Origin: an uncultured Anaerofilum sp.
Lineage (GTDB): Bacteria; Bacillota; Clostridia; Oscillospirales; Ruminococcaceae
Assembly (NCBI GenBank): GCA_944385935.1
Contig: CALWZC010000004.1
Location: 75,426-139,425 of the forward strand
Direction of reading: 5' to 3'
Length of the DNA stretch: 64,000 nucleotides
Below, piece after piece: positions 6,477 to 42,605 of this stretch. A program made the position numbers and the translations under genes. The stretch's first letter is position 1. Every line of letters starts with the position of its first letter. Below the pieces are notes generated by a model. The model was not told where the DNA came from. It saw nothing but the letters and a program-made list of their open reading frames with translations, and made no database searches.

Positions 6477-7859
6477 TTGAACCGGATTGATTTTACACAC
6501 AATACACAAGCGGCAGAGGTAATTGCTGCCCATTACGACAGCCCACCTTTGGCCTTTGTCCATTCTTATGGCTGTCAGCAAAATGTAAACGATGGAGAAA
6601 AAATCAAAGGTGTGCTGGTGGATGCTGGTTACGGCCTTTGTGACAAGTTTGAGGATGCAGACCTGATTTTGTTTAATACCTGCGCTGTGCGAGAGCATGC
6701 TGAGGAGCGTGTTTTTGGCAATGTGGGAGCACTCAAACAGCTAAAAGCTAAAAATCCCCGTCTGATTATTGGCATTTGTGGTTGCATGACCCAACAAGAA
6801 GGCGTGGTAGAGCGTTTGCGCAAAAGCTACCCCTTTGTAGATTTGGTCTTTGGGGTAAATGGCATTGACACACTGCCCCAACTGTTGGCGGAGAAAATGG
6901 GGGCAGGAAAGCGACTGCTAAAAACCCCAACCCAGCGATATGATGTGGTAGAGCAGATTCCCATTCAACGAGATTCTACCTTCCGAGCATGGTTGCCTAT
7001 CATGTATGGATGTGACAACTTTTGCTCTTACTGTATTGTTCCCTATGTACGAGGCAGAGAGCGCAGCCGGAAGAGCCAAGATATTTTGGCAGAGTTTCGC
7101 CAGCTGATAGAGCAGGGATACAAGGAAATTACCCTTTTGGGGCAAAATGTAAACTCTTACGGAAAAGGATTGGAGGAAACAATAGACTTTGCCGACCTGC
7201 TGGAGCAGCTCTGCCAGCAACCGGGGGATTACCATATCCGCTTTATGACCAGCCATCCTAAGGATGCTACCAAAAAGCTCATTGACACTATGGCAAAATA
7301 TCCCCAGCTTTGCAATCATCTGCATTTGCCAGTGCAAAGCGGCAGCAACCGAATCCTAAAGGAAATGAACCGCCACTATACTGTGGAGCAGTATATGGAG
7401 CTAATCAACTATGCAAAGGAGAAAATTCCTGGCATTACCTTCTCCAGTGATATTATTGTAGGATTTCCCGGGGAAACGGAAGAGGAATTTGAACAAACAC
7501 TAGACCTTATTTCCAAAGTGGAATATATGCAGTTGTTTACCTTCATTTATTCCAAAAGAACCGGAACCCGTGCCGCAGAAATGCCCGACCCCTTTACCCA
7601 CAAAGATAAAACCAACCGAATGGCAAGACTGTTGAAAACACAGGAGGAGATTGCCAGCCGTTTGGCAAAGGGAATGATAGGCAAGCAATGCCGTGTGCTG
7701 GTGGAGGGACATTCCCGACAACCGGGTACCCTTGCAGGTAGATTGGATAACAATCTTGTAGTGGAATTTGCAGGGGATGCTGCTCTCATTGGTAGCTATA
7801 CTACTGTAAACATTGAAGATGCTCGTGTAACCATGCTGAAAGGCAGCTTGCAAGCTTGA
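6477..7859 (+). CDS. miaB: tRNA-2-methylthio-N6-dimethylallyladenosine synthase (radical SAM methylthiotransferase)
   Basis: UPF0004 N-domain (SYGCQQNVNDGE, FNTCAVREHAE), radical SAM CDNFCSYCIVP, C-terminal TRAM. TTG start at 6477 with GAGG 8 nt upstream. Confidence 0.9.
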   Translation: MNRIDFTHNTQAAEVIAAHYDSPPLAFVHSYGCQQNVNDGEKIKGVLVDAGYGLCDKFEDADLILFNTCAVREHAEERVFGNVGALKQLKAKNPRLIIGICGCMTQQEGVVERLRKSYPFVDLVFGVNGIDTLPQLLAEKMGAGKRLLKTPTQRYDVVEQIPIQRDSTFRAWLPIMYGCDNFCSYCIVPYVRGRERSRKSQDILAEFRQLIEQGYKEITLLGQNVNSYGKGLEETIDFADLLEQLCQQPGDYHIRFMTSHPKDATKKLIDTMAKYPQLCNHLHLPVQSGSNRILKEMNRHYTVEQYMELINYAKEKIPGITFSSDIIVGFPGETEEEFEQTLDLISKVEYMQLFTFIYSKRTGTRAAEMPDPFTHKDKTNRMARLLKTQEEIASRLAKGMIGKQCRVLVEGHSRQPGTLAGRLDNNLVVEFAGDAALIGSYTTVNIEDARVTMLKGSLQA

Positions 7860-29521: not shown

Positions 29522-30145
29522 ATGAAAGGGCTATTGCTAAAAGATTTTTACATGACAATCAAATATGGTAAAACTTTGTTTCTGGTGGTCTTGGTTTTTT
29601 GGGCAATTTCTTGTTTTGATGATGGGGGAAGTTTTTTCCTGGTATACCCTATGATTTTAGCCGGAGTGCTTCCAATGTCCCTGATTTCTTTGGATGAACG
29701 GGAAAAATGGGTACAATACAGCGGAACATTGCCGTATACCAGAGCACAGTTAGTATCTTCAAAATATATCATAGGGCTTTTGTTGGGCGTTGGAGCATTT
29801 ATTCTTTCTATGGCGACTACTGCTGGCCGTATGTGGATGAATGGATATTTTTCTTTGTTAGAGTTTGGAACAATAGCCTCTCTTCTTCTTGTGTTGGGGT
29901 TGTTGCCGCCCACCATTTTACTGCCCTTTGTTTTCAAATTTGGAGCAGAAAAAGGCAGAATCATGTTTTATGTGGTGATTGGCTTGGCAACTGCTATTGG
30001 TACTTTATTGGCAGGGTTTGGATTTCAAATGCAGATGCAGACCAATGAATTTGCAATACTATTTGTAATGTGCACTGTGGCAGTATTGTTATATCTTGGC
30101 TCTTGGTGCCTTTCCGTTGCTTTTTATAAAAAACGAGAATTATAA
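29522..30145 (+). CDS. ABC-2-type transporter permease
   Basis: 207 aa, about 6 TM. N-terminal MKGLLLKDFY is typical of ABC-2 permeases in GntR/ABC modules. ATG lies 10 nt after AAGGAG. Confidence 0.7.
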   Translation: MKGLLLKDFYMTIKYGKTLFLVVLVFWAISCFDDGGSFFLVYPMILAGVLPMSLISLDEREKWVQYSGTLPYTRAQLVSSKYIIGLLLGVGAFILSMATTAGRMWMNGYFSLLEFGTIASLLLVLGLLPPTILLPFVFKFGAEKGRIMFYVVIGLATAIGTLLAGFGFQMQMQTNEFAILFVMCTVAVLLYLGSWCLSVAFYKKREL

Positions 30146-30150
30146 TGTAC

Positions 30151-30196
30151 AAAAAGGTTTTGTTTTTTCAAAAAGAGAACAGAACCTTTTTCTTTT
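30151..30196 (+). terminator. Rho-independent terminator after the ABC module
   Basis: AAAAAGGTTTTGTT / AACAGAACCTTTTT stem with one mismatch, followed by a T-rich tract. Confidence 0.6.
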
Positions 30197-30235
30197 GGTG
30201 TATTTTTCTGACAAAATGCCCTCTTTTTGCTAAAG

Positions 30236-30269
30236 TTCTGTTCACAAGTGAACAGAAATATGGTAGAAT
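30236..30269 (+). promoter_or_regulatory. Perfect 10+10 palindrome overlapping a predicted promoter of the Zn-ribbon/SPFH pair
   Basis: TTCTGTTCAC-AA-GTGAACAGAA (30236-30257). The -35-like TTCACA (30241-30246), 17-nt spacer and extended -10 TGgTAGAAT (30261-30269) follow. Confidence 0.5.
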
Positions 30270-30309
30270 TACAAAAACATCTATCCATGACAAAGGAGGG
30301 AAAGCATCA

Positions 30310-31506
30310 ATGGACTTGACACAAGAAAAAGTGGAAAATTTTGTGTGCGAGAATTGCGGCGGAACATTAAAATGGAATATAGCAAAAAAGCAATTGGAGT
30401 GTGGGTCTTGTCACACTCCCTATACTCTGCAACAGGAATCTGTTATACAAGAGCATCCCTTTGAGGAATATCATCAGCGTGAGCAGCGAACAGAAGCATT
30501 TCCTGATGAAACAGTGGTAAAGTGTAACTCTTGTGGTGCAGAAGTAGTGTTTGATAGAGATGACACGGCAAAGGTCTGCCCTATGTGTGGGGCAACTCAG
30601 ATTTTGCCACAAAAGCAGGTGCAAGGTGTTCCACCAGATGGAGTTTTGCCCTTTGAAATAGATAAACAGGCAGCCCAGCAAAAATTTAAAAAATGGGTAA
30701 GAAGTCGTTGGTTTGCCCCCAATAAGCTAAAAACCGTTTACCAAGAGGGAAAACTGAATGGGGTGTATATTCCTTTCTGGACCTTTGACACACAAGCAAA
30801 TGGCGAGTACCATGGTAGAGGTGGCAAGGAGCATGTTCGAGAGGACAAAGACGGCAACAGACGTGTGGAAGTTCGTTGGATACCTGTAAGCGGGCATGTG
30901 GGAAAATTTTTTGATGATATCCAAATTTCTGCCTCCATGGGACAGGTGAATGAGGTTGTAGATAAGGTTTTACCCTATTCTACACAAACAAAGCTACATG
31001 GATATTCTCCTATGTATCTTTCGGGATTTTCGGCAGAACGATATGCCATTCCAGCAACACAGGCCGCCGAAACCATGAAAGAGAAAGTTCGGCGAGAGTT
31101 GAAACGGATGGCAGAGGAGGATATTCGGTCAAGAGGGTTTGACCGAGCAGATGTACAACACTTGAAACTGGATTTAGAAGATACTACCTATAAGCAAGTG
31201 TTGTTACCTGCATGGTTTTCTTCCTATGCCTACGGAAAAAAGCAGTATATGTACATTATCAATGGTGAGACCGGCGAAGTAGGAGGACAGAGGCCTTATA
31301 GCATCCCCAAAATTGCAGCGGCTGTTGTGGCTGCACTTGCGTTGGTGGGGCTAATTGTTTGGGGCTCTTCCGAAAAAACAGAGGCAGCCGTTTTTGCCAC
31401 ACCAACCACAGAGGTGGTTTATCAGCAGGAACAACCTGCAAATACAATTTTGATGAAAGAAGGAAATGCAAATGGCTTGGTTTGGACAAGGAAAGGACAC
31501 AATTGA
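30310..31506 (+). CDS. Double zinc-ribbon protein with C-terminal TM anchor (YdjG-like)
   Basis: ATG at 30310 after AAAGGAGGG. Two CxxC...CxxC ribbons (CENCGG...CGSC; CNSCGA...CPMCG). C-terminal TM IPKIAAAVVAALALVGLIVWG. Confidence 0.7.
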   Translation: MDLTQEKVENFVCENCGGTLKWNIAKKQLECGSCHTPYTLQQESVIQEHPFEEYHQREQRTEAFPDETVVKCNSCGAEVVFDRDDTAKVCPMCGATQILPQKQVQGVPPDGVLPFEIDKQAAQQKFKKWVRSRWFAPNKLKTVYQEGKLNGVYIPFWTFDTQANGEYHGRGGKEHVREDKDGNRRVEVRWIPVSGHVGKFFDDIQISASMGQVNEVVDKVLPYSTQTKLHGYSPMYLSGFSAERYAIPATQAAETMKEKVRRELKRMAEEDIRSRGFDRADVQHLKLDLEDTTYKQVLLPAWFSSYAYGKKQYMYIINGETGEVGGQRPYSIPKIAAAVVAALALVGLIVWGSSEKTEAAVFATPTTEVVYQQEQPANTILMKEGNANGLVWTRKGHN

Positions 31507-32530
31507 GTGGGAAGAATTTCGAGATGATGTGCTATTTTACAAATGGCCCGGAAAGGAGATTAAAAAGGGTGCTCATCTAATTTTGCGCCCCGGACAAAAG
31601 GCAATCTTCTATGCAGATGGAGAAGTGGGAGCAGTATTTGAACGAGAGGGCAACTTTGATATTGCGTCGGAAATTGTACCCTTCTTTTCTACTCTAAAGG
31701 GATGGTTTAGCCTGCGAGGGGACAGCGGTATGCGGGCAGAGGTCTATTTTGTAAATGCAAAACAGCTTTTGCTCAACTGGGGAACCCGTCAGCGTGTAAT
31801 GATTCCTACCCCACAGGTTCCCGCAGGAATTCCAGTAGGTTGCAATGGTAATCTGGTGGTTGCTTTCCGAGATTATCAGCGGTTTATTCAAACAGTAGCT
31901 GGAGTACGCAGTACATATAGCCTAGAGGATATTTCTGAGCGAATTATGGGAGAACTAAGCCCCATTCTTTCTGAGGCAATTCTAGGCAAACAACAAATGA
32001 TAGGTGTCAATGCTTTGACAGGCCTCCAGCAAAACAGTAGAACCATTAGCAAGTTTATCTGTGAGGAATTGGACAAAGAGCTTTCTGATTTTGGTTTAGG
32101 TGTACAGGATGTCAATATTTTGGCATTCAATTACCCACCAGAAGTAGAAGCAATGGCTGCCAAAGTTGCTGGGCAAGCATTTGTAGGGGATGTAGGACGA
32201 TATGCCACCATCAGCATGGCAGATAGCTTTTCCACACCCAATGCAGCAGGTTCTGCAGCGGCTGGTGGCATGGGCTTAGCAATGGGTATGCAGATGGCAG
32301 GGCAGATGATGGGTACAATGGCAGGACAACAAAACCAGCAACCCCAACAACCCGCACAAACCTGTACAGCCTGTGGAATGAGTATACCCCAAGGGGCTAA
32401 ATTCTGCCCGGGATGTGGTGCAGCTGTGACCGCCGCACCCCAACAAACAGAAGGAGACCGCTTCTGTCCCAATTGCCGCAAAATGGTTTCTGGTAATTTC
32501 TGCCCAGATTGTGGAACAAAAACAGTATAA
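31472..32530 (+). CDS. SPFH/band-7-like protein with C-terminal double zinc ribbon (COG4260 / YdjI-like)
   Basis: N-terminus MAWFGQGKDTIEWEE...ILRPGQKAIFYADGEV..., a Gly/Met/Gln-rich linker, then CTACG...CPGCG and CPNC...CPDCG. Start overlaps the upstream gene. Confidence 0.75.
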   Translation: MAWFGQGKDTIEWEEFRDDVLFYKWPGKEIKKGAHLILRPGQKAIFYADGEVGAVFEREGNFDIASEIVPFFSTLKGWFSLRGDSGMRAEVYFVNAKQLLLNWGTRQRVMIPTPQVPAGIPVGCNGNLVVAFRDYQRFIQTVAGVRSTYSLEDISERIMGELSPILSEAILGKQQMIGVNALTGLQQNSRTISKFICEELDKELSDFGLGVQDVNILAFNYPPEVEAMAAKVAGQAFVGDVGRYATISMADSFSTPNAAGSAAAGGMGLAMGMQMAGQMMGTMAGQQNQQPQQPAQTCTACGMSIPQGAKFCPGCGAAVTAAPQQTEGDRFCPNCRKMVSGNFCPDCGTKTV

Positions 32531-32636: not shown

Positions 32637-32786
32637 ATTGAATTTTTAGGGGAAATAGCTTTTTTTATTTGCTTTTTGTTACTAAATAACAAGAAAAATG
32701 AAGCATTTTTGTAACAGAAAGTTATTTTCTGTAAAATATGCCTGATTTTATTTGCAGTATGGGAAAAAAGTTTGTTTTTTTAACAC

Positions 32787-32814: not shown

Positions 32815-32882
32815 TCTAACAGGTAATCTTTATATTAGAAAAATCTAATGAATTGTTTTGTGTTAGAAAGGGGTGCCTAAAA

Positions 32883-33206
32883 ATGAGTAATGAAACAAAT
32901 GTTTTGTTACAGTCGGTGTTGGAAATGGACCGGCAAGAACGGCTACGCACACAGGAGGCGGAGGACTACCGTGGAAAGGCCATGGCTCAGCTGGAGGACA
33001 GCCGTAAGGACATTCACCAAAAACACCAGCAGTTGGCACAGCAAAAAATAGAAGCATATACCCAACAGGAAAATGAACGTATGCAACAAACCTTGCAGAC
33101 CTTACAACAAAAAAGTGCAGCAGTAAAGCAAACACTAAACGCCACAAAGTCTGCCAAACAGGAACAATGGGTAGAAACAATTTTTGAGCGTGTTTTGGAA
33201 AGGTGA
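32883..33206 (+). CDS. V/A-type ATPase small coiled-coil subunit (G/H-like peripheral stalk candidate)
   Basis: 107 aa, almost entirely helical and charged (QERLRTQEAEDYRGKAMAQLEDSRKDIHQKHQQLAQQKIEAY...). It is the first gene of the operon. Assignment rests on position and composition only. Confidence 0.5.
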   Translation: MSNETNVLLQSVLEMDRQERLRTQEAEDYRGKAMAQLEDSRKDIHQKHQQLAQQKIEAYTQQENERMQQTLQTLQQKSAAVKQTLNATKSAKQEQWVETIFERVLER

Positions 33207-33214
33207 GGCGTTTT

Positions 33215-34273
33215 ATGGCAATTCCTTCCTTTGGTTCAAATGCAGTGTTGGCAAAGTGCCGTGCAATGTATGGCAAAAGCCTGACTGCTCGCAATTATAC
33301 AGAGTTGCTTGCCTGCCATACTGTGCCGGAAGTAGCAGCTTACTTGAAAACAAAAACCCATTATGCTTCTTGTTTGTCGGGGGTTACTCCTCAAGTAATT
33401 CACCGTGAACAGTTGGAAATTTTATTAAAGCGGTATCTGTTTGGACAATATGCTGCCCTTAGTCGATATGAAATTAGCTTAGGGCAGGATTTTTATTCCT
33501 ATTTTGTGGTAAAAAGCGAACTGGAAATGGTTTTAGCACAACTGCATAAAATCAATGCACAGGAACATATCCCTGTTATGGGCGCAGAGCCTGATTTTGT
33601 AAAAAAGTTTTCTCAGCTAAATGAAAGCAAAATTTCCTCTGCAAATAATCTCATGCAGTTGGCACACGCTTTGGATGGCACTCCCTATGGCAAAATTATT
33701 CATTCCTTTGTGGAAAAAACAACTTTTGATTTGCAAAGAGATGGCACATTGGAAATTGAAGCAGCCTTGATGGACTACGAGTATAGTGTCATGGAGGAGC
33801 TTTCCCAGAAACATCTAAAAGGAAAACAGTTGCAAGAAGTACTGGAAATTTTGAAACGTCAAAGCGATGTACAGGCAATTATCAATATGTTCCGTATGAA
33901 GAAGATGTTGCAATCTCCCAGTATGTATGTACGGCGCAGAGTTTCCATGCAACACACACAGCTTTCTTCTCAAAAAATCAATCAGCTTTTGGATGCGGAA
34001 AATGAGGAAGATTTTGTACGGGTGCTAAAAACTACCAGCTATGGAAAAGAACTGGCAAAGGTGGCATACGACTATATTGAAGAGGGAATGCAAAAGGTGC
34101 AGTACCATTTTCATTTAAAAAAATTCCGTTTTTCCACCAATCCCAGTGCAGTTATGCTGTGCTATTTGTTTTTGGCAGAAAATGAATTGACCAATGTTAC
34201 CCACATTATAGAGGGCATTCGATATGGAATGTCGCCAGAAGAAATTGAACGTCTTTTGGTAGGAATCCAGTGA
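33215..34273 (+). CDS. ntpC: V/A-type ATPase subunit C (V0 d / AC39 family)
   Basis: About 352 aa. AC39-like repeats (LTARNYTELLACHTVPEVAAYLKTKTHY...; NELTNVTHIIEGIRYG). The alternative start is GTG 33203. Confidence 0.85.
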   Translation: MAIPSFGSNAVLAKCRAMYGKSLTARNYTELLACHTVPEVAAYLKTKTHYASCLSGVTPQVIHREQLEILLKRYLFGQYAALSRYEISLGQDFYSYFVVKSELEMVLAQLHKINAQEHIPVMGAEPDFVKKFSQLNESKISSANNLMQLAHALDGTPYGKIIHSFVEKTTFDLQRDGTLEIEAALMDYEYSVMEELSQKHLKGKQLQEVLEILKRQSDVQAIINMFRMKKMLQSPSMYVRRRVSMQHTQLSSQKINQLLDAENEEDFVRVLKTTSYGKELAKVAYDYIEEGMQKVQYHFHLKKFRFSTNPSAVMLCYLFLAENELTNVTHIIEGIRYGMSPEEIERLLVGIQ

Positions 34274-34290: not shown

Positions 34291-35253
34291 GTGTTTTTTG
34301 ATGAAAAAATACAGTTGGTATGGGTGGATGGCTCGGTGCAGCTTTTGGAAAGTTTTGTACAGAAGTGTTGCATGGGGGATGAACGTGTACATCCTACCAC
34401 AGCCAGCGATAAAATGAGCGCAGGCATGGGCTTTGCCCCCCCAGAAATAGAAAATAATTGGGCGCAGCGCATTGAGGAAATGGAACAGATGGCCCAAGGG
34501 CTGGAACTTCCAGTGGTAGAGCCTGCTTTTGAGGATGCTCGTTCTCCCAAATTGGATGGATATTTGCAGCGAGTCAAAACCGCTTTGGATGAGAAACGGA
34601 ATATTCTGAAAGATTTGGAGGCACAACAGGTTTTGTGTCAGCAGGGCATAGAGCAATTTTCCCATTTTGAAGAACTGGATGTGGATTTGAGCAAAGCTCT
34701 TGAATGTGAATACATTTCCATCCGTTTTGGAAAACTGCCCAAAGCTGGGTTTGAAACTCTGTTGAGGGAACACGGCGATGACCCTTATGTGTTCTTTATT
34801 CGGTGCAGCGAAGACAAGGATTTTTACTGGGGAATGTATTTTGCTCCCCGTGAAAAACGAGCTTTGGTAGATGGTATCTTTGCAGGCTTGTACTTTGAAC
34901 GAGTACGGTTGCCCGGTGCAGGGGGAACCCCAAAAGAAATTGTAGAAAATCTTCAACACAATGTAGAGATTTTGCGCAGCCAAATTTTGCAAGCACAAGA
35001 CCAACTACAACAGGTATGGGGAGCAGAAAAATGGCGTTGCGCTGGTATTTATGCCTCTTTTTGCAGTTTGGCCCGTGTAGCAGAGTTGTGCAAGTGTGCT
35101 GCTGTGCGGGGAGAGCATTTCTTCTATGCAGTATGGGTGGAACAAACTGCTATGGAAGCCTTTGTATCTCGCTGCGAATCTGTGGGCAAACTGCATATGG
35201 CAATGGATATGACCCTTCCCAGAAAGAAATGGAAACAGCTCCATCAGCAATAA
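34291..35253 (+). CDS. Stand-alone paralogue of the cytoplasmic N-terminal domain of V-ATPase subunit I (no membrane domain)
   Basis: 320 aa, GTG start after GAAGGAGAGG. Collinear with residues 1 to about 320 of the next gene: EKIQLVWVDGSVQLLESFVQKCCMGDE vs EKMKLVRVDGLLSQLDDFILRCCINGD; DDPYVFFIRCSEDKDFYWGMYF vs DDPYVFFVPCSQENGGYWGLYF; GIFAGLYFERV vs GIFSMLYFERI. Confidence 0.7.
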   Translation: MFFDEKIQLVWVDGSVQLLESFVQKCCMGDERVHPTTASDKMSAGMGFAPPEIENNWAQRIEEMEQMAQGLELPVVEPAFEDARSPKLDGYLQRVKTALDEKRNILKDLEAQQVLCQQGIEQFSHFEELDVDLSKALECEYISIRFGKLPKAGFETLLREHGDDPYVFFIRCSEDKDFYWGMYFAPREKRALVDGIFAGLYFERVRLPGAGGTPKEIVENLQHNVEILRSQILQAQDQLQQVWGAEKWRCAGIYASFCSLARVAELCKCAAVRGEHFFYAVWVEQTAMEAFVSRCESVGKLHMAMDMTLPRKKWKQLHQQ

Positions 35254-35294
35254 CGGCGGCTTATACCGCATGAGAAAGGACGATGAACTGATTC

Positions 35295-37226
35295 GTGGCC
35301 ATTGAAAAAATGAAGCTCGTCCGAGTGGATGGGCTGCTCAGTCAGTTGGATGATTTTATCCTGCGATGTTGCATTAATGGTGATTTTCAACCTGAACCTG
35401 CTATCCAGTATATGTCTGCTTCCAGTAAAAACATGTCCTTGGTGGAGGAAAACCCCTATCCACCTATGGTGCAGGCAGTAGAAGAATTGTTTGCTCTGGC
35501 AGAATATACCCCCCAAGAGGATAATAAAACCGAAAAAGAACGTACCATAGACCCCAAAGCCTTGGAAGCAGTGCAAACTGTAAAAGAAGAGTTGAAAGTT
35601 TTACAGCAACAGCAAAAAACACAACAGCGAGAACTGGCACAGCTTCAAGAGCGCAGCAACCAATATTCCCACTTTGAGTCGTTGGAAACTCCCCTAGAGG
35701 AACTGGAGGCGACAAAGTATATCAATATCCGTTTTGGATTTTTGCCGGGAGAGAGCTATCAAAAAATGCAGACCAGTTATGCAGATGACCCTTATGTATT
35801 TTTTGTGCCTTGCAGTCAGGAAAATGGCGGATATTGGGGATTATACTTTACCCCTCATCGGGTAGCAGATGAGATTGATGGCATTTTTTCCATGCTGTAC
35901 TTTGAGAGAATTTCTTTGGAAAACGATACTGGTACAGTAAAAGAAATTATGCAAAAGCTGCAAACACAAATCGACCAGTTGCAGCAAGAACTGGACAAAA
36001 CCAATGCAGCCATACAAAAGTTGTGGGAAGAAAATAAAGAATATTGCATTGGTGTGTACAGCCAGTTGAAATGGTTAGACCAAGTGTTTGAACTGCGGCA
36101 TTATGCAGCTTATCGGGATAACTATTTCTTCTATGTGGGATGGATTCCTGAAAGAGCTGTGCCAGAGTTTAGCAAGCAGGTAAAATCTCTGCGCAATATG
36201 AAAATTACCGTTACCGACCCCAGCAAACAGGACAAAATTGCTCCGCCGGTAAAGTTAAGGAACCTTTTACCCTTCCGGCCCTTTGAGATGTTTGTTGGAA
36301 TGTATGGCCTTCCCAGTTATGGAGAAATGGACATCACCGAATTTGTTGCCATTACATTTACTTTATTGTTTGGCATTATGTTTGGTGATATGGGACAGGG
36401 AGCTGTGCTTGCCATTGGTGCCTTTATCCTGTATAAGTGGAAGGGTATTGCTTTGGCGAAACTGGTTATTCCTTGTGGAATTTCTTCCATGTTCTTTGGG
36501 TTCATTTTCGGTTCGGTATTTGGATTTGAACATTTGCTAGACCCGGTATACCACGCCTTAGGCTGGAAAGGAAAGCCACTGGAAGTAATGGAATCCATCA
36601 ACACAGTGCTATTGGTTGCCATTGGTATTGGTGTTTCCTTGGTAATTGCTTCTATGTTGCTAAATGTTGTCGCTTCTGCACGAAAAGGACATTGGGGAGA
36701 GGCTATCTTCTCCAACAATGGTTTGGTAGGATTGGCAGTGTATATTTCTGGTGTAAACCTAGTAAGTGGATTTATGGGCGGCCCCAGCCCCATCCCTGCG
36801 CAAGTGGGACAATTCCTCATTGGTGCTGGTCTGGTTTTGCTGTTCTTTAAAGAGGTGCTGGTAGGTAAATTTGACGGGCACCCCGACTGGAAACCAGAAA
36901 GCTGGAGCGACTATGCTATGCAGAACTTGTTTGAACTACTGGAATATGTGCTTTCTTATTTTTCAAACACTGTTTCCTTCTTGCGTGTAGGTGCTTTCGT
37001 AATTGTCCATGCTGCTATGATGATGGTGGTATTTAGTCTGGCAGGAGACCCTGCAAACCCTGTGGTTGTGGTATTGGGCAATGCTTTGGTAATCTGTTTG
37101 GAAGGTTTGCTGTCTGGTATTCAGGGATTGCGTTTGGAATTCTATGAAATGTTTAGCCGCTGCTATGAGGGCGGTGGACGTCCTTTCCGGGGAGTTCGTC
37201 TTGCACCGGAAAAACAAAAGCACTAA
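35295..37226 (+). CDS. ntpI: V/A-type ATPase subunit I (a-subunit, 116-kDa family)
   Basis: 643 aa. N-terminal cytoplasmic domain plus a C-terminal multi-TM domain with the conserved LSYFSNTVSFLRVGAFVIVH arginine helix. Start is GTG 35295 or ATG 35310. Confidence 0.9.
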   Translation: MAIEKMKLVRVDGLLSQLDDFILRCCINGDFQPEPAIQYMSASSKNMSLVEENPYPPMVQAVEELFALAEYTPQEDNKTEKERTIDPKALEAVQTVKEELKVLQQQQKTQQRELAQLQERSNQYSHFESLETPLEELEATKYINIRFGFLPGESYQKMQTSYADDPYVFFVPCSQENGGYWGLYFTPHRVADEIDGIFSMLYFERISLENDTGTVKEIMQKLQTQIDQLQQELDKTNAAIQKLWEENKEYCIGVYSQLKWLDQVFELRHYAAYRDNYFFYVGWIPERAVPEFSKQVKSLRNMKITVTDPSKQDKIAPPVKLRNLLPFRPFEMFVGMYGLPSYGEMDITEFVAITFTLLFGIMFGDMGQGAVLAIGAFILYKWKGIALAKLVIPCGISSMFFGFIFGSVFGFEHLLDPVYHALGWKGKPLEVMESINTVLLVAIGIGVSLVIASMLLNVVASARKGHWGEAIFSNNGLVGLAVYISGVNLVSGFMGGPSPIPAQVGQFLIGAGLVLLFFKEVLVGKFDGHPDWKPESWSDYAMQNLFELLEYVLSYFSNTVSFLRVGAFVIVHAAMMMVVFSLAGDPANPVVVVLGNALVICLEGLLSGIQGLRLEFYEMFSRCYEGGGRPFRGVRLAPEKQKH

Positions 37227-37320
37227 GTGCTACTAAATGTTTGCCATGTTTCGCACATTGTGCGATATGGAAAGTGAAAATCACTTTTATAAAATCTTTT
37301 ATCATTTGGAGGAAGAATCT

Positions 37321-37773
37321 ATGAATACTCTGTTTCAACTGTTGTTTGCACTGGCTCCCGTAGCCATTTTGATGGGAGCAACCGCTCTGATTGCTCGCAA
37401 GGTAAGCGCAGGCAAAATTAGTGTGAAGAAGTCCTTTGGTATGAACTTGGCTGTCTTTGGTGTGATTATGGTAGTAGGCTGCATGATGGCTATGACTGTA
37501 TTTGCTGCTGATGGTGCCGCTGCAATGACCGCCGCAGAGCGTGCAGCAAGCAACCAGAGCATGGGTCTGGGTCTGTTGGCTGCTGCATTGGTAACCGGTT
37601 TGGCAGGTATCGGCGGTGGTATCGCTGTTGCCGCAGGTGCTCCTGCTGCTATCGCAGCTGCAAGCGAAGACCCCAAGAGCTTTGGTAAGTCCTTGATTTT
37701 CGTTGCTTTGGGCGAGTCTATTGCATTGTATGGTGTTGTTATCTCCATCTTGATTCTGAACAAGTTGGTATAA
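37321..37773 (+). CDS. ntpK: V/A-type ATPase proteolipid subunit K (c)
   Basis: ATG at 37321 after GGAGGAAG. C-terminal hairpin GLAGIGGGIAVAAGAPAAIAAASEDPKSFGKSLIFVALGESIALYGVVISILIL carries the essential Glu. The N-terminal ~75 aa form two further hydrophobic helices. Confidence 0.85.
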   Translation: MNTLFQLLFALAPVAILMGATALIARKVSAGKISVKKSFGMNLAVFGVIMVVGCMMAMTVFAADGAAAMTAAERAASNQSMGLGLLAAALVTGLAGIGGGIAVAAGAPAAIAAASEDPKSFGKSLIFVALGESIALYGVVISILILNKLV

Positions 37774-37795: not shown

Positions 37796-38104
37796 ATGCG
37801 TTTTTATCTAATCAGTGATAATGTAGATACATTGGTGGGCATGCGTTTGGCAGGCATTGAGGGAGTAGTAGCCCACGAAGATGCCGAGGTACAGCAAGCT
37901 CTGGATGAGGTGCTGAAAGCCGATGATATCGGCATGATTTTGGTTACTGAAAAGTTGATGCGCCAATTTGGTGAGCATTTTGACCAAGTGCGCCAAACCA
38001 TGACAAAGCCCCTAATTGTGGAAATTCCCGACCGGCATGGTGCCGTAAACGGAAAAGACCGCATTACCAAATATGTGCGTGATGCCATTGGCGTCAAGAT
38101 TTGA
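37796..38104 (+). CDS. ntpF: V/A-type ATPase subunit F
   Basis: 102 aa. MRFYLISDNVDTLVGMRLAGIEGV...DIGMILVTEKL is typical of subunit F. Confidence 0.85.
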   Translation: MRFYLISDNVDTLVGMRLAGIEGVVAHEDAEVQQALDEVLKADDIGMILVTEKLMRQFGEHFDQVRQTMTKPLIVEIPDRHGAVNGKDRITKYVRDAIGVKI

Positions 38105-38114
38105 GGTGTAAAGG

Positions 38115-38708
38115 ATGATTCAGCAACAAGAGCGTGCAGAAAAGTTTTTTCGGGCAATTCGCAGAGATGCTGAACGGCGGCGTAAGCAGATTATCAGCCA
38201 AATTGATGAATATATCGCCGCAGAAACCGAAAAAATAGAGCAGGCGGAATTGCAATCTGCCAATGAACGGGTACAATATGAAACCCAACGTATACAATCC
38301 CAAACCAACAGCCAGTTGGCAAAGGAAACCACCGAAATCAGTGCAGAGTTGGCTGCCTACCGTAGCGCAATTACCAAAGAGGTATTTGAACAAGTGGCAC
38401 AGAAGCTGGCAGTATTTGTGAAAAGCCAACAGTATCAGCAATGGTTGTCTGATGGATTGGGCCAAATGGAAAAACTTCTTGGTGCGGGGATGACAGTGTA
38501 TGCTGCCCCTGCTCAGGTGGAACAGGTAGAAAAAGCTGTTGCAATGGCAAAGGTAGACTGTACAGTCAAAGCAGACGAAAACATCCATTTGGGTGGTGTT
38601 CGTGCAGAAAAAGGCAGCAAAAAGGTGGATGACACACTGGACAGCCGCCTGAAAAGTCAAGAGGATTGGTTCTACCAGAACTCTGGTCTTTCCATTGCAA
38701 TTCAGTGA
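38115..38708 (+). CDS. ntpE: V/A-type ATPase subunit E
   Basis: 197 aa. Long N-terminal coiled coil, globular C-terminus (GGVRAEKGSKKVDDTLDSRL), operon position. Confidence 0.8.
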   Translation: MIQQQERAEKFFRAIRRDAERRRKQIISQIDEYIAAETEKIEQAELQSANERVQYETQRIQSQTNSQLAKETTEISAELAAYRSAITKEVFEQVAQKLAVFVKSQQYQQWLSDGLGQMEKLLGAGMTVYAAPAQVEQVEKAVAMAKVDCTVKADENIHLGGVRAEKGSKKVDDTLDSRLKSQEDWFYQNSGLSIAIQ

Positions 38709-38723
38709 AACGAGGTGTAAGCG

Positions 38724-40502
38724 GTGAGTGAACCGATTCGGATTCATGGCATCAATGGCCCAGTTGTTACCATTCAGGGAAAAACTGGCCTTGGCATGAT
38801 GGAAATGGTGTATGTAGGCGACCAGCGACTGGTGGGTGAAGTCATCGGGCTGGATAGCAATAAAACCACCATTCAGGTATATGAGGAAACAGGCGGCCTT
38901 CGTCCCGGTCAGCCAGTATTCTCTACTGGTGGCCCCATGTGTGTAACATTGGGCCCCGGCATTTTAAAAAATATTTACGATGGTATTCAGCGGCCGCTGC
39001 CTGCCATTGAGAAACAATCAGGGGCATTTATTGGCAAGGGTGCCGATGTTCCTGCTCTAGACCCCGATGCAGTATGGGATGTAACTTTGACTGTAAAAGA
39101 GGGGGATACTCTCTCTGCTGGTCAAGTGTACGCCACTTGTCCCGAAACTCCCATCATTCTACATAAATGTATGTTGGCTCCGGGCAAAAGTGGAACCATT
39201 GTATGGGTTGCTCCAAACGGAAGCTACCGAGTCAATGATGTTGTGGCAAAATTGCAACGGCAGGACGGAACCATTGAGGAGTTGACCTTGTGCCAAAAAT
39301 GGCCCATCCGTACTCCTCGCCCAGTAACCAACCGCATGGGTGCAACCCGCCCCTTGATTACTGGTCAGCGTGTAATTGATACCATGTTCCCCATTGCAAA
39401 GGGCGGTGCAGCCGCCATCCCTGGTGGATTTGGTACCGGTAAAACTATGACCCAGCACCAGTTGGCAAAATGGTGTGACGCAGATATTATTATTTACGTG
39501 GGCTGTGGCGAACGTGGTAATGAGATGACACAGGCTTTGACCGAGTTCGGTGAGATTACCGACCCCAAGTCTGGCCGTCCCCTAACAGATAGAACCGTGT
39601 TGATTGCCAATACTTCCAATATGCCTGTGGCTGCCCGTGAGGCTTCCATCTACACAGGCGTTACCTTGGCAGAATATTACCGTGATATGGGCTATCATAC
39701 TGCTATGATGGCAGACTCTACCAGCCGTTGGGCGGAGGCATTGCGTGAAATTAGCGGACGTTTGGAAGAAATGCCTGCGGATGAAGGCTTCCCCGCATAT
39801 CTGCCCAGCCGTTTGGCAGAGTTTTACGAGCGTGCAGGTTATGTGTCTACCTTGAACGGGCAAGAAGGTTCTGTCACCTTGATTGGTGCAGTTAGCCCAC
39901 AGGGTTCCGACTTTTCCGAGCCTGTTACCCAGAATACAAAGCGGTTTACCCGTTGTTTCTGGGCATTGGATAAGGCATTGGCTTATGCTCGTCACTATCC
40001 GGCCATCAACTGGAACGACAGCTACTCAGAGTATACCAGCGATTTGGCACATTGGTACTATGACCATGTAGGCCCTGACTTTATGGCTTACCGTGAGGAA
40101 TTGGCAGGAATTTTGTTGCAGGAAAACAGCTTGATGGAGATTGTAAAGCTGATTGGTTCCGATGTATTGCCCGATGACCAAAAACTGGTTATTGAGATTG
40201 CTCGTGTGGTTCGGGTAGGATTCTTGCAGCAAAATGCTTTCCACAAGGATGACACCTTTGTACCTATGGAAAAGCAATTAAAAATGATGCAGGTAATTTT
40301 GCACCTGTATCACAAATGCCAAGATATTGTGGCACGACAGGTGCCCCTTTCCCAGATTATTAAATTGGGATTGTTTGATAAAGTGATTAAGATTAAATAT
40401 GATGTACCCAATGACCAACTAGATTTGCTGGATGGGTATATCACAGAAATCAATCAGGCGTTGGGGCAGTTCCTCAACACCGATTACAGAAAGGGGGAAT
40501 AA
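38724..40502 (+). CDS. ntpA: V/A-type ATPase catalytic subunit A
   Basis: 592 aa, GTG start. P-loop PGGFGTGKT, non-homologous insert region, [27 protein letters not shown]. Confidence 0.97.
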
Positions 40503-40505
40503 GGG

Positions 40506-41882
40506 ATGATTCTGGAGCATATTGGTCTTTCTCAGATTAACGGTTCTCTGGTAGTTCTAGATGATGTGGAAGATGCCAGCTATGATGAAATGGTGGAAAT
40601 GCACCTAGACGACGGCAGCCACCGTGTAGGCCGTGTGGTTATGATTGAAGGTAGTCGTATTGTTGTTCAGGTGTTTGAGGGAACCCGTGGTCTTTCTTTG
40701 GATAATACCCGCACCGTACTTACCGGCCATCCCATGGAAATTGACCTTTCCCCGGAAATTTTGGGCCGTACCTTTGATGGATTGGGTCGCCCCATTGATG
40801 GCATGGGAGCCATCTTCCCACAGGTTCGCCGGGATGTAAATGGTTCGCCCATCAACCCCGTTTCCCGTGTCTATCCCCGAAACTACATTCGTACTGGTAT
40901 TTCCAGTATTGACTGCTTAGCCACCTTGATTCGTGGTCAAAAACTGCCCATTTTCTCTGGTTCCGGTATGAAACACAACGAATTGGCAGTACAGATTGTA
41001 CAGCAGGCAAATGTATCGGATGGAAGTGAATTTGCCATCGTATTTGCGGCAATGGGTGTAAAAAACGATGTAGCGGAGTACTTTAAGTCCAGTTTTGAAA
41101 AAGCCAATGTTATGGACAGGGTTGTTATGCTGCTAAATTTGGCAAATGACCCCATCATTGAACGTATTTTGACCCCCCGTTGTGCATTGACTATTGCAGA
41201 GTATCTTGCCTTTGATTTGGGCATGAATATTCTGGTGGTTATGACCGATATGAGTAGTTATTGTGAGGCGTTGCGTGAGTTCTCCTCCTCCAAAGGAGAG
41301 ATTCCAGGAAGAAAAGGCTTCCCCGGCTACCTCTACTCCGACCTTGCCAGCTTGTATGAACGTGCCGGCATTGTGCAGGGCAAAAAGGGTTCTGTGACTC
41401 AGATTCCCATTTTGACTATGCCTGGTGATGATATTACTCACCCTATTCCTGACTTGACCGGATATATCACCGAAGGCCAGATTGTTTTGGATAGAAGTCT
41501 GGATGCTACTGGTGTATATCCTCCTGTTAGTGTGTTGCCTAGCTTGTCCCGTCTGATGAAGGACGGCATTGGCGCAGGCTATACCCGCGATGACCATTCG
41601 GCATTGTCTAACCAGTTGTTTGCATTGTATGCCCGTGTGCAGGATGCAAAGGCATTGGCCAGTGTTATTGGTGAAGATGAGCTTAGTCCGGCTGACAAGC
41701 GAGTATTGCAATTTGGTAAAGCCTTTGAACAGCGTTTTGTAGGGCAAGGCTTTACCAACCGAACCATGGAAGAAACCCTAGATTTGGGCTGGGAGCTGTT
41801 GGGTATGCTTGACCGCAGCGAGCTTGACCGTGTGGATGATGCTATCCTAGACCAGCACTACAAGCCCTATCAGGCGGAATAA
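40506..41882 (+). CDS. ntpB: V/A-type ATPase subunit B
   Basis: 458 aa. [53 protein letters not shown]. Confidence 0.97.
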
Positions 41883-41915: not shown

Positions 41916-42542
41916 ATGGCACAACAGGTATTTCCTACAAAAAGCAATCTAATGGCAACCAAAAAAAGCCTTGCTCTGTCCAAACAGGGCTATGAACTCA
42001 TGGACCGCAAACGAAACATTTTGGTGCGGGAAATGATGCAGTTGATTGACCGTGCTGCTGAGATTCAAACAAAAATCGAGGTAGCATATTCCAGTGCATA
42101 CCGCGCTTTGCAGCGAGCCAATGTAACACTGGGAATGGTTGGCAAATTTGCCAACAGTGTGCCCCAAGAGGAAGGCTTACAACTGGAGTTTCGCAGTGTA
42201 ATGGGTGTGGAATTGCCCATCGTAAAGCTGGAAAGCCAGCAGCCAACACAGTTTTACTATGGATTGTACTCCACCAACAGCCAGCTTGATGATGTATATG
42301 AGCAGTTTGAGGAAGTAAAGCGGTTGACTGTGGAATTGGCAGAAGTAGAGGGAAGTGTTTATCGTCTTGCGGTAGCCATCAAAAAGACCCAAAAACGAGC
42401 CAATGCCTTAAATAACATTATGATTCCGAAATTCACTGCCACTATCAAGTTTATTACAGAGGCTTTGGAGGAAAAGGAGAGAGAGGAATTTTCTCGCCTA
42501 AAGGTTATTAAAAGCCAAAAGGACAAGGCCGAACAACAGTAA
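41916..42542 (+). CDS. ntpD: V/A-type ATPase subunit D
   Basis: 208 aa. VFPTKSNLMATKKSLALSKQGYELMDRKRNILVREMM and C-terminal ALEEKEREEFSRLK. Confidence 0.93.
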   Translation: MAQQVFPTKSNLMATKKSLALSKQGYELMDRKRNILVREMMQLIDRAAEIQTKIEVAYSSAYRALQRANVTLGMVGKFANSVPQEEGLQLEFRSVMGVELPIVKLESQQPTQFYYGLYSTNSQLDDVYEQFEEVKRLTVELAEVEGSVYRLAVAIKKTQKRANALNNIMIPKFTATIKFITEALEEKEREEFSRLKVIKSQKDKAEQQ

Positions 42543-42561
42543 TTTGTTGCCATAAAAACAG

Positions 42562-42605
42562 CACCTTATTTTTTGCCACTGTAGCAAAGAATAGGGTGTT
42601 TTTTG
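42562..42605 (+). terminator. Rho-independent terminator after the V-ATPase operon
   Basis: CACCTTATT / AATAGGGTG outer stem with one G-U pair, inner TTGC...GCAA pairing, followed by a T7 run. Confidence 0.65.

Follow-up and report, generated by a model that had tools for sequence, protein, structure and literature searches.

A free-standing paralogue of the subunit I cytoplasmic arm in a clostridial V/A-ATPase operon, a candidate accessory stator subunit

The membrane domain of subunit I of the V/A-type ATPases, about 330 aa in length, consists of eight transmembrane helices, carries the essential arginine and forms the ion half-channels. In the eukaryotic enzyme, a further subunit, C, contacts the stalk EG3 through its head and both EG2 and the N-terminal arm of subunit a (aNT) through its foot, and it is released on regulated disassembly. 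The number of peripheral stalks differs between classes of rotary ATPases: the F-type has one, the prokaryotic A/V-type has two, both resting on the single arm of subunit I, and the eukaryotic V-type has three (PMC3639240, PMC6131620). Eukaryotic subunit C, which adjoins the arm of subunit a and docks E-G stalks 2 and 3 (PMC6131620), is an additional collar subunit said to occur in eukaryotes only and to be without a homologue in A-type enzymes (PMC3639240, PMC6131620). In the Thermus enzyme, a-sol binds the proximal and the distal E-G stalks with its two lobes, the distal lobe contacting both the distal E-G and subunit d (PMC7367684). A full-text literature search returned no account of a free-standing gene for the subunit I N-domain, or of a three-stalk prokaryotic enzyme.

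We analysed a window of 64,000 nucleotides from an uncultured Anaerofilum sp. (contig CALWZC010000004.1, positions 75,426 to 139,425). The initial annotation had assumed that a subunit I-like gene found there, here called IN, belongs to an ntp operon, and the surrounding genes (G-like, C, IN, I, K, F, E, A, B, D) agree with this. The features of the operon are as follows.

32709..32737, + strand: promoter-like site TTGTAA-17-TAAAAT, 5' of the first operon gene (weak; consensus scan alone, 9/12 matches)
32853..33206, + strand: G-like small coiled-coil gene, 117 aa, the first ntp gene (assigned by position and size; presumed peripheral-stalk partner of E)
33203..34273, + strand: subunit C (AC39; d in Thermus/eukaryotic nomenclature), 356 aa (Pfam vATP-synt_AC39, E 1.8e-56)
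34291..35253, + strand: IN, free-standing paralogue of the subunit I N-terminal cytoplasmic domain, 320 aa, GTG start, TAA stop
35276..35282, + strand: Shine-Dalgarno GAAAGGA of subunit I, separate from that of IN (read from the sequence)
35295..37226, + strand: subunit I, canonical and full-length, 643 aa, with its own N-domain (residues 1-316) and membrane domain
37237..37773, + strand: subunit K proteolipid (Pfam ATP-synt_C)
37796..38104, + strand: subunit F (Pfam ATP-synt_F, E 1.1e-24)
38115..38708, + strand: subunit E, peripheral stalk (Pfam vATP-synt_E, E 9.2e-9), presumed partner of the IN lobes
38724..40502, + strand: subunit A (ORF; A/B are 64-96% identical to A/B genes of related operons that bear ATP-synt_ab Pfam domains)
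40506..41882, + strand: subunit B (ORF; same basis as A, 64-96% identity and ATP-synt_ab in relatives)
41916..42542, + strand: subunit D (Pfam ATP-synt_D, E 8.8e-56)
42560..42600, + strand: intrinsic-terminator-like hairpin after D, the operon end (17-bp stem followed by a T-run)

The G-like protein matched no Pfam or NCBIfam family; related operons carry a gene for 102-118 aa in the same place. Translation of K probably begins at the ATG at 37321, for a product of 150 aa, and K orthologues are 150-156 aa long. No strong terminator-like site was found before 42560, and nothing comparable lies between C, IN and I. IN is thus embedded in the operon, co-oriented with its neighbours and in conserved synteny with them in 12/12 orthologous loci, and it has the ribosome-binding site and intact frame ascribed to it at the outset: a complete 320-aa ORF, preceded by the Shine-Dalgarno sequence GGAAGGAGAGG located 6-16 nt 5' of the start.

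Both sequence and fold identify IN as a free-standing, membrane-less paralogue of the cytoplasmic N-domain of subunit I, as the initial annotation had read the ORF at 34291-35253. BLASTP against the adjoining I (35295-37226) gave 33% identity and 53% positives over 314 residues with 6 gaps (E 4e-50), pairing residues 5-315 of IN with residues 4-314 of I, and all four motif pairs that had been quoted in favour of the relationship fall within this alignment. The remark that IN halts before the PPVKLRN motif was also correct; the motif starts at I residue 317, and the IN terminus coincides with the domain boundary. The membrane domain is absent from IN, whose 320 residues run only as far as the start of the PPxKLxN linker in I, and a membrane-domain HMM gave zero matches among all IN-family members. 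The downstream 643-aa gene, taken from the beginning for a normal a/I subunit, passes the Pfam V_ATPase_I check with 83.8 bits against a cut-off of 30.7, and matches NCBIfam subunit-I models down to 1e-58. The same Pfam check on IN yielded zero matches at E <= 0.1, and NCBIfam returned subunit-I models below threshold only (best 8e-10, 37.5 bits against a cut-off of 766), which leaves IN under the curated family thresholds of subunit I/a (Pfam PF01496 V_ATPase_I; NCBIfam PRK05771 equivalogs). When the PDB sequences were searched with the IN-family profile, no V-ATPase chain was found, the sole match being a chance hit to coatomer at E 0.68. The homology of IN is visible by direct comparison, sub-threshold NCBIfam matches and fold alone. 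The IN-family profile retrieved 735 proteins at E <= 1e-3; those examined were mostly 630-660-aa I subunits. The protein is currently labelled "hypothetical" in databases.

The AF2 model of IN (pLDDT 86.4) predicts the arm fold, that is, two alpha/beta lobes and an antiparallel coiled coil built of two long helices (residues 88-124 and 214-267). When this model was used as a Foldseek query, it matched 6r0z_N with E 6.8e-13 and TM 0.62, and 3rrk with E 3.4e-9. The parts of IN can be delimited as follows.

34291..34458, + strand: proximal lobe, N-terminal half, residues 1-56 (model secondary structure; invariant MFFD..QLVWVDG start and C26/C27 in the alignment)
34552..34662, + strand: coiled-coil helix 1, residues 88-124 (AF2 model)
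34663..34929, + strand: distal alpha/beta lobe, residues 125-213 (motifs RFGKLP, DDPYVFF, WGxYFAP, DGIFxxLYFER)
34930..35091, + strand: coiled-coil helix 2, residues 214-267 (AF2 model; holds the IN-specific invariant C258)
35092..35205, + strand: proximal lobe, C-terminal half, residues 268-305 (IN-specific C269 and C295; I-conserved G281 and P284 replaced)
35206..35250, + strand: basic C-terminal tail DMTLPRKKWKQLHQQ (W314 invariant; aligns with the PPVKLRN linker region of I)

Judged by its residues, IN retains the distal-lobe signature of subunit I: of the 38 positions of this lobe that are conserved among 62 solo I subunits, it keeps 26 and the adjoining I keeps 28. The distal lobe was the identity peak in 7/7 paralogue pairs examined. 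At the proximal-lobe positions conserved in solo I subunits, retention in IN is only 9/17, against 15/17 in the clade's own I; G281, present in 100% of I, is replaced by V, and P284 by A. The IN-specific invariant cysteines are C258, C269 and C295 only. A larger family-specific cysteine cluster or metal site was considered and rejected, since C26, C139 and C172 are widespread in I subunits. C27, found in 30% of all I, is invariant in the clade's own I as well; C116 occurs in 16% of all I and in 71% of the other free-standing copies. The C-terminal tails of these other copies are basic too, but heterogeneous. The idea that the basic, Trp-containing tail of IN is a membrane anchor was abandoned, and the tail is kept as an observation.

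The claim that IN is a maintained gene and not a recent truncation was upheld in a sample of 12 orthologous loci from Anaerofilum, Allofournierella and "Gemmiger" MAGs, which span two genera. The gene order G-C-IN-I-K-F-E-A-B-D is retained in all of them, with a gap of 12-17 nt between C and IN, and IN (313-322 aa) is conserved in length over ~50% sequence divergence. By the NG86 method, dN/dS ranged over 0.02-0.29 for IN, compared with 0.04-0.21 in the I N-domain, 0.04-0.26 in E and 0.02-0.27 in G; identity between genera was 49.4% for IN, 46.0% for the I N-domain, 46% for C, 45% for E and 33% for G. IN is under purifying selection as strong as that acting on the genuine I arm. Absence or variable truncation in close relatives, the outcome foreseen for a decaying duplicate, was not what we found; the sole exception is one MAG (L008), in which TGG>TGA at W314 removes the last 7 residues of IN, and which also carries C26R. 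True split I genes or frameshift errors do happen in MAGs (L016), and a split of one longer gene had been named as the other way in which the annotation could fail; this candidate was rejected because the I gene that follows is complete and possesses an N-domain of its own. Moreover, the frame offset from IN to I takes values of 0, 1 and 2 among the loci, stops and a separate Shine-Dalgarno sequence are present in every locus, and the GAAAGGA element between IN and I is kept in 12/12, which together rule out a programmed frameshift fusion. IN is therefore a maintained gene, neither split, decaying nor artefactual.

The survey of relatives for the duplicated arrangement was extended beyond the orthologous loci, and the layout of C, an N-only gene and a full I was encountered in at least eight other lineages. 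Nine more N-only genes were found (P0013, P0015, P0035, P0041, P0077, P0093, P0123, P0131, P0155), all directly 5' of an I with its own N-domain, and 3' of C wherever the contig reaches that far. The free-standing copies were monophyletic in 0/100 NJ bootstraps, and several paired with their own adjoining I (bootstrap 100 in L084, 77 in L090 and 72 in L089), which indicates that the duplication is recurrent. One ancient duplication common to all free-standing copies was accordingly rejected. The placement of the IN clade itself is weak, with IN and its own I forming a clade in only 2/100 bootstraps, so that IN may stem either from a local duplication or from transfer. Pairing of copies with their neighbours could also result from gene conversion; however, a search for conversion tracts in such pairs found none that were near-identical (the top 30-residue window reached 77%), and identity along all paralogue pairs follows the same lobe pattern, both of which argue against concerted evolution as the cause.

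The extra module also exists in covalently attached form. P0043 (939 aa, in an otherwise canonical operon) and P0089 (946 aa) combine in one chain the membrane domain with one complete and one partial N-domain. An internal N-domain duplication was seen in 13 more representatives, one of which, P0120, is probably an insertion only, and in three subunit I variants (P0066, P0084, P0136) a distal-lobe module is inserted in the membrane domain. Altogether, double-N I subunits of other Clostridia span 750-946 aa (750-905 aa for P0014, P0017, P0021 and others). The cis-fused and free-standing forms are independent events in the tree. No literature description of the cis-fused variants was found either. 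This recurrence across lineages, together with the cis-fused forms, goes beyond what the initial annotation had noticed.

The favoured explanation of these findings, to which we assign a probability of roughly one half, is that IN is an accessory collar/stator subunit which provides extra docking for E-G and is loosely analogous to eukaryotic subunit C. Among the roles first suggested for it, namely a second stator foot, an assembly factor or a competitor for the E/G stalks, the evidence leans towards the second stator foot. IN would be co-transcribed with the other nine ntp genes, translated separately, and soluble. The E-G heterodimers, at their N-terminal ends, and/or subunit C(d) would be bound by its conserved distal lobe and perhaps also by the remodelled proximal lobe. 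Located next to the arm of subunit I, where the membrane ring faces the cytoplasm, IN would extend the collar and might hold a stalk beyond the two known in prokaryotic enzymes. Since the same module is fused in cis to I and free-standing copies have arisen repeatedly and independently, the extra arm presumably works inside the complex, instead of in some unrelated moonlighting function.

Several observations count against this role. The cis-fused and the other free-standing forms are independent of IN and their function may differ from its own; the diverged proximal lobe and C258, C269 and C295 could mean a new partner or a new mode of regulation; and the solved prokaryotic A/V-ATPases are all two-stalk enzymes without such a subunit (PMC3639240, PMC6131620). 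The more far-reaching proposal that some clostridial V/A-ATPases have an expanded collar with three peripheral stalks, by means of a free-standing or cis-duplicated arm whose lobes offer further docking sites for E-G, we regard as unlikely. If it were true, bacteria would have repeatedly re-invented the solution embodied in eukaryotic subunit C, and these enzymes would offer a living model for a possible origin of subunit C and of the third stalk from a duplicated a-subunit arm.

The main competing reading, that of a regulator, brake or assembly factor and not of a stoichiometric structural subunit, is possible, if somewhat unlikely. IN could act as a decoy arm that binds C(d) and stops rotation in trans, in the way that a-sol stops isolated Vo, or it could cap the N-termini of E-G on free V1. 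Unassembled sectors would thereby be silenced, or their assembly chaperoned, in a manner that recalls the releasable subunit C of eukaryotes. It is known that a-sol of Thermus touches subunit d and mechanically inhibits isolated Vo (PMC7367684), and IN retains the distal lobe that makes part of this contact; in all loci its gene comes directly after C(d), and C258, C269 and C295, together with the remodelled proximal lobe, could be a sensing feature. On the other hand, permanent fusion of the extra N module to I, as in P0043, P0089 and the partial duplications, suits a fixed structural element better, the tight operon spacing suggests expression near the levels of structural subunits, and bacterial V/A-ATPases have not been reported to disassemble in a regulated manner (PMC7367684).

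Subfunctionalisation, in which IN and the I N-domain would have divided two ancestral stalk-docking jobs between them, so that there would still be two stalks, one of them on IN, appears quite improbable. In its favour, of the positions conserved in solo I, 5 are retained in IN only (e.g. C139, P214), 15 in the clade's own I only, and 11 are lost from both. Nevertheless, with the distal and proximal retention described above for the clade's own I, neither of its lobes looks degenerate, and a soluble IN without an evident membrane anchor would have to resist torque alone. Finally, a neutral or decaying duplicate, or a frameshift-split artefact, in favour of which only L008 and L016 could be cited, is effectively refuted by the complete downstream I, by an intact, length-conserved IN in 12/12 loci with dN/dS of at most 0.29, and by conservation of IN slightly better than that of the genuine I N-domain.

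If IN is indeed an accessory stator subunit that docks stalks, the prokaryotic two-stalk rule would be broken, and how the eukaryotic collar and its third stalk originated would become open to experiment in bacteria. A conserved, operon-encoded second arm that is recurrent and also occurs fused in cis would amount to a new accessory subunit in an enzyme of the textbooks. As a brake or assembly factor, IN would represent the first case of a bacterial V/A-ATPase with a dedicated regulator acting in trans. On both readings, a family of "hypothetical proteins" in abundant gut Oscillospiraceae becomes annotatable.

Among known systems, the closest to IN is a-sol of subunit I/a (Meiothermus ruber 3RRK; Thermus thermophilus 6R0Z/6QUM/6LY9), with which it shares the order lobe, antiparallel coiled coil, lobe, as well as the distal-lobe motifs. 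Unlike a-sol, IN is a separate chain with no membrane domain and no proton/sodium channel, has a remodelled proximal lobe, three family-specific invariant cysteines and a basic KKWK tail, and lies under the Pfam and NCBIfam family cut-offs. The clostridial cis variants of I share with IN the extra N-domain or distal-lobe module, and the type of operon as well, but there the module is covalently attached to I. Isoforms of subunit a (Vph1/Stv1 in yeast, four in human) likewise represent paralogy within the same subunit that diversifies the N-terminal arm (PMC10313074); these, however, are complete alternative subunits in different complexes, whereas IN is an arm only, encoded beside a complete I in the same operon. 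A precedent for multiplied stator elements in bacteria is the F1Fo of Chloroflexus aurantiacus, which is reported to have two peripheral stalks and two a-subunits, and which differs from the present case in being of the F-type, with unrelated subunits and membrane-embedded additions (PMC12002316).

The comparison with eukaryotic subunit C is of another kind. Foldseek placed the IN model near subunit C chains with E 8.5e-9 (7uzf_G) and 1.2e-7 (1u7l), ranging to 1e-5, at TM of only 0.30-0.38. IN has no match to the subunit C family (Pfam V-ATPase_C) and no detectable sequence relationship to it, so that the likeness is architectural and positional only. Subunit C (Vma5p/ATP6V1C; 1U7L) is a soluble collar protein in which a coiled coil connects two globular alpha/beta domains, a build that IN may share, and we put forward, as a hypothesis, that the two may be functional analogues.

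The gene encoding IN, a free-standing 320-aa paralogue of the N-terminal cytoplasmic domain (the arm) of V-ATPase subunit I, lies within an ntp (V/A-type ATPase) operon of ten genes.

Genes of the ntp operon in the window, all in one orientation
32853-33206, G-like gene
33203-34273, C/d (AC39)
34291-35253, IN, 320-aa ORF
35295-37226, I, 643 aa
37237-37773, K (proteolipid)
37796-38104, F
38115-38708, E
38724-40502, A
40506-41882, B
41916-42542, D

The IN frame starts with GTG, and GGAAGGAGAGG lies 5' of this codon, in agreement with the ribosome-binding site initially ascribed to it. The sole strong terminator-like hairpin of the operon was found 3' of D (42560-42600). The mechanically called K frame has 178 aa, as compared to 150-156 aa in orthologues, and the true start probably lies at 37321 (ATG; MNTLFQLL...). 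Two genes lie directly 5' of the operon. The product of one (30145-31506; 453 aa) has several zinc-ribbon-like CxxC motifs and a hydrophobic stretch at the C-terminus, and that of the other (31466-32530; 354 aa) closes with a Q/P-rich linker plus three CxxC pairs.

The initial annotation, which described IN as a copy of the I N-domain ending before the PPVKLRN motif, proved accurate in every detail checked. In BLASTP, IN and the 643-aa I were 33% identical over 314 residues with 6 gaps (E 4e-50); IN residues 5-315 matched I residues 4-314, and the linker motif begins at residue 317. Pfam recognized V_ATPase_I in the 643-aa protein and returned zero matches for IN, for which NCBIfam gave subunit-I matches only, all below threshold. 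An AF2 model based on the 10-sequence IN family alignment (mean pLDDT 86.4) consists of a beta/alpha lobe formed by the N- and C-termini, a long antiparallel helix pair (88-124 and 214-267) and a second beta/alpha lobe (residues about 125-213). Its top PDB matches in Foldseek were V-ATPase a/I subunits, including those of Thermus (6r0z_N; E 6.8e-13, TM 0.62), the I N-domain crystal structure 3rrk (E 3.4e-9) and mammalian and yeast a subunits (E 1e-13 to 1e-8). At the nucleotide level the IN/I duplication is now visible only as short direct repeats (34302-34331 vs 35303-35332 and 34932-34956 vs 35939-35963), which are 77-80% identical and lie 1001-1007 nt from each other.

Our results confirm that IN is a real, maintained gene, as had been proposed. 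A word-indexed protein search gave 10 IN family clusters of 319-321 aa, 49-100% identical, whose sole source names were "hypothetical protein" (NCBI) and an uncharacterised-protein entry (UniRef). When 80 loci from a genome scan were sorted by ORF and BLASTP parsing, the window's order G-C-IN-I-K-F-E-A-B-D was shared by 11, from Anaerofilum, Allofournierella and "Gemmiger"/Oscillospiraceae MAGs, while 68, from other Oscillospirales, had C-I-K... without IN. At the remaining locus (L016; JAHZIE010000076.1, HRGM_Genome_3390, ~6616-7494), which unlike the window has no further full-length I, the I gene is divided in two, one part (322 aa) coding for N and the other (344 aa) for the membrane region; either the gene is genuinely split or the MAG contains a frameshift or an assembly error.

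The possibility that IN is a decaying duplicate, absent or variably truncated in relatives, was rejected: the gene is present at 12 of 12 orthologous loci, always beginning with MFFD and encoding 313-322 aa. The single short version (L008; JAHZHS010000050.1) lost 7 residues by TGG>TGA at the invariant W314. This orthologue also carries C26R, and K and F each appear twice in the ORF parse of its locus; these oddities probably reflect MAG assembly or consensus problems. Among Allofournierella species, NG86 dN/dS was 0.02-0.29 for IN, compared with 0.04-0.21 and 0.015-0.14 for the N-domain and membrane domain of I, respectively, and 0.04-0.26 for E. Between genera, where dS was saturated, IN was 49.4% identical and the I N-domain 46.0% (C 46%, E 45%, G 33%); within Anaerofilum the respective values were 74.9% and 72.2%. 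A frameshift artefact or a programmed fusion with I was likewise rejected. The 41-106-nt spacer contains stops and a conserved GAAAGGA SD, and the IN/I frame offset differs among loci (0, 1 or 2), thus the two are always separate cistrons.

Similar arrangements were found outside the IN family. An exhaustive profile search gave 735 matches at E <= 1e-3 among 1.84 billion representatives, and separate N-domain and membrane-domain HMMs divided the 149 listed proteins outside the family into 65 canonical N+TM subunits, 15 multi-N subunits (675-946 aa), 15 N-only proteins (306-335 aa, with their own C-termini), 51 fragments and 3 subunit I proteins of 786-812 aa (P0066, P0084, P0136). In these three, the membrane domain is interrupted between its HMM positions 217 and 218 by a distal-lobe-like segment (about 104-224 of the N-domain HMM); this is a third route to an extra lobe on the cytoplasmic face. 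Among multi-N proteins, P0043 (939 aa) and P0089 (946 aa) have a complete N-domain, a partial one and then the membrane domain, and the others have N 1-~200 followed by N ~45/80-312; P0120 is probably an insertion only. The arm is duplicated in tandem, partly or wholly, in P0014, P0017, P0021, P0037, P0043, P0055, P0062, P0080, P0081, P0092, P0097, P0134 and P0139 (749-946 aa), and the gene for P0043 (L085:5913-8732) lies in an otherwise canonical G-C-I-K-F-E-A-B-D operon. The survey of ntp operons revealed the window's duplicated layout at nine further N-only representatives, those with readable genomic context.

N-only representatives and their loci
P0041, L081
P0035, L083
P0015, L084
P0077, L086 and L087 (NCBI assemblies)
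P0093, L088
P0123, L089
P0155, L090 and L091
P0013, L092
P0131, L093

In 9/9 contexts an I gene with its own N-domain follows next downstream, and the C (AC39) gene lies upstream wherever the contig reaches. The P0077 family comprises 6 clusters (310-318 aa, identity down to 32%) labelled "hypothetical".

A single shared origin of the free-standing copies (FS) was rejected, as their monophyly occurred in 0/100 bootstraps of a neighbour-joining tree (Kimura distances, 314 columns, 68 taxa). Several copies paired with their own neighbouring I (FS_L084 in 100, FS_L090 in 77 and FS_L089 in 72 of 100 replicates), FS_L083 adjoined I_L083 and I_L086, and FS_L086, FS_L088 and P0158 formed their own clade (bootstrap 100). 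The window's IN clade (100) and its own I clade (99) came together in only 2/100 replicates. Copy-to-neighbour identity was 56% at L084, 48% at L083, 42% at L090, 35% at L089, 33% at L081 and 31-35% in the window family; across lineages the copies were 19-33% identical, with the L086/L088 clade (32% within) set apart. Identity peaked in the distal lobe in all seven copy/neighbour pairs compared, and no conversion-like tracts were seen in them. The data are explained most simply if the segment coding for the arm was repeatedly duplicated in tandem and the copy kept each time as a gene of its own.

Of 63 positions conserved at >=75% in 62 "solo" I N-domains, 38 fall in the distal lobe, where IN keeps 26 and the neighbouring I 28; in the proximal lobe the numbers are 9/17 vs 15/17. 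Both G281 (100% in I) and P284 are replaced in IN. C258, C269 and C295, invariant or nearly so in the IN family, are virtually absent from all I and other free-standing copies, and might build a disulfide or a site for metal binding or redox sensing. The C-terminal tails of free-standing arms (window 35206-35250; P0015, P0130, P0131 and P0035) are short and basic and often contain Trp or Phe (LPRKKWKQ, KRRWWLPPF, PPKKLDFNWKK). They align with the PPxKLxN linker, which in I lies on the surface of the membrane, and may represent a remnant of a membrane interface or of a contact with the ring.

IN is a soluble, operon-integrated arm paralogue under purifying selection with a retained distal lobe. 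As for its function, we infer that it works within the ATPase. The favoured reading is that IN would be an accessory collar or stator subunit, offering extra docking to E-G, the peripheral-stalk heterodimer, and/or touching C(d), since other lineages carry this module as a covalent part of I, and since it has arisen repeatedly at one and the same place in the operon. The chief competing reading would make IN a brake, decoy or assembly factor acting in trans; in isolated Thermus Vo the arm, largely via its distal lobe, touches subunit d and stops rotation (PMC7367684). A third possibility is that IN and I share out the two docking sites (subfunctionalisation); in Thermus, the two a-sol lobes hold the proximal and distal E-G stalks (PMC7367684).

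According to reviews, prokaryotic A/V-ATPases have two stalks, both on the single arm of subunit a/I, and eukaryotic V-ATPases have three, on a collar composed of aNT, C and H; A- and F-type enzymes lack a homologue of eukaryotic subunit C (PMC6131620, PMC3639240). Full-text searches of the literature turned up neither a free-standing arm gene nor I subunits with a duplicated arm, and IN belongs to a wider, recurrent and apparently undescribed multiplication of the stator arm in Clostridial V/A-ATPases. Although a paralogue of the I N-domain, IN falls outside the subunit I family proper, because it lacks the membrane domain and scores below thresholds; it is also outside the eukaryotic subunit C family, to which it bears no sequence relation, but it may work like subunit C.
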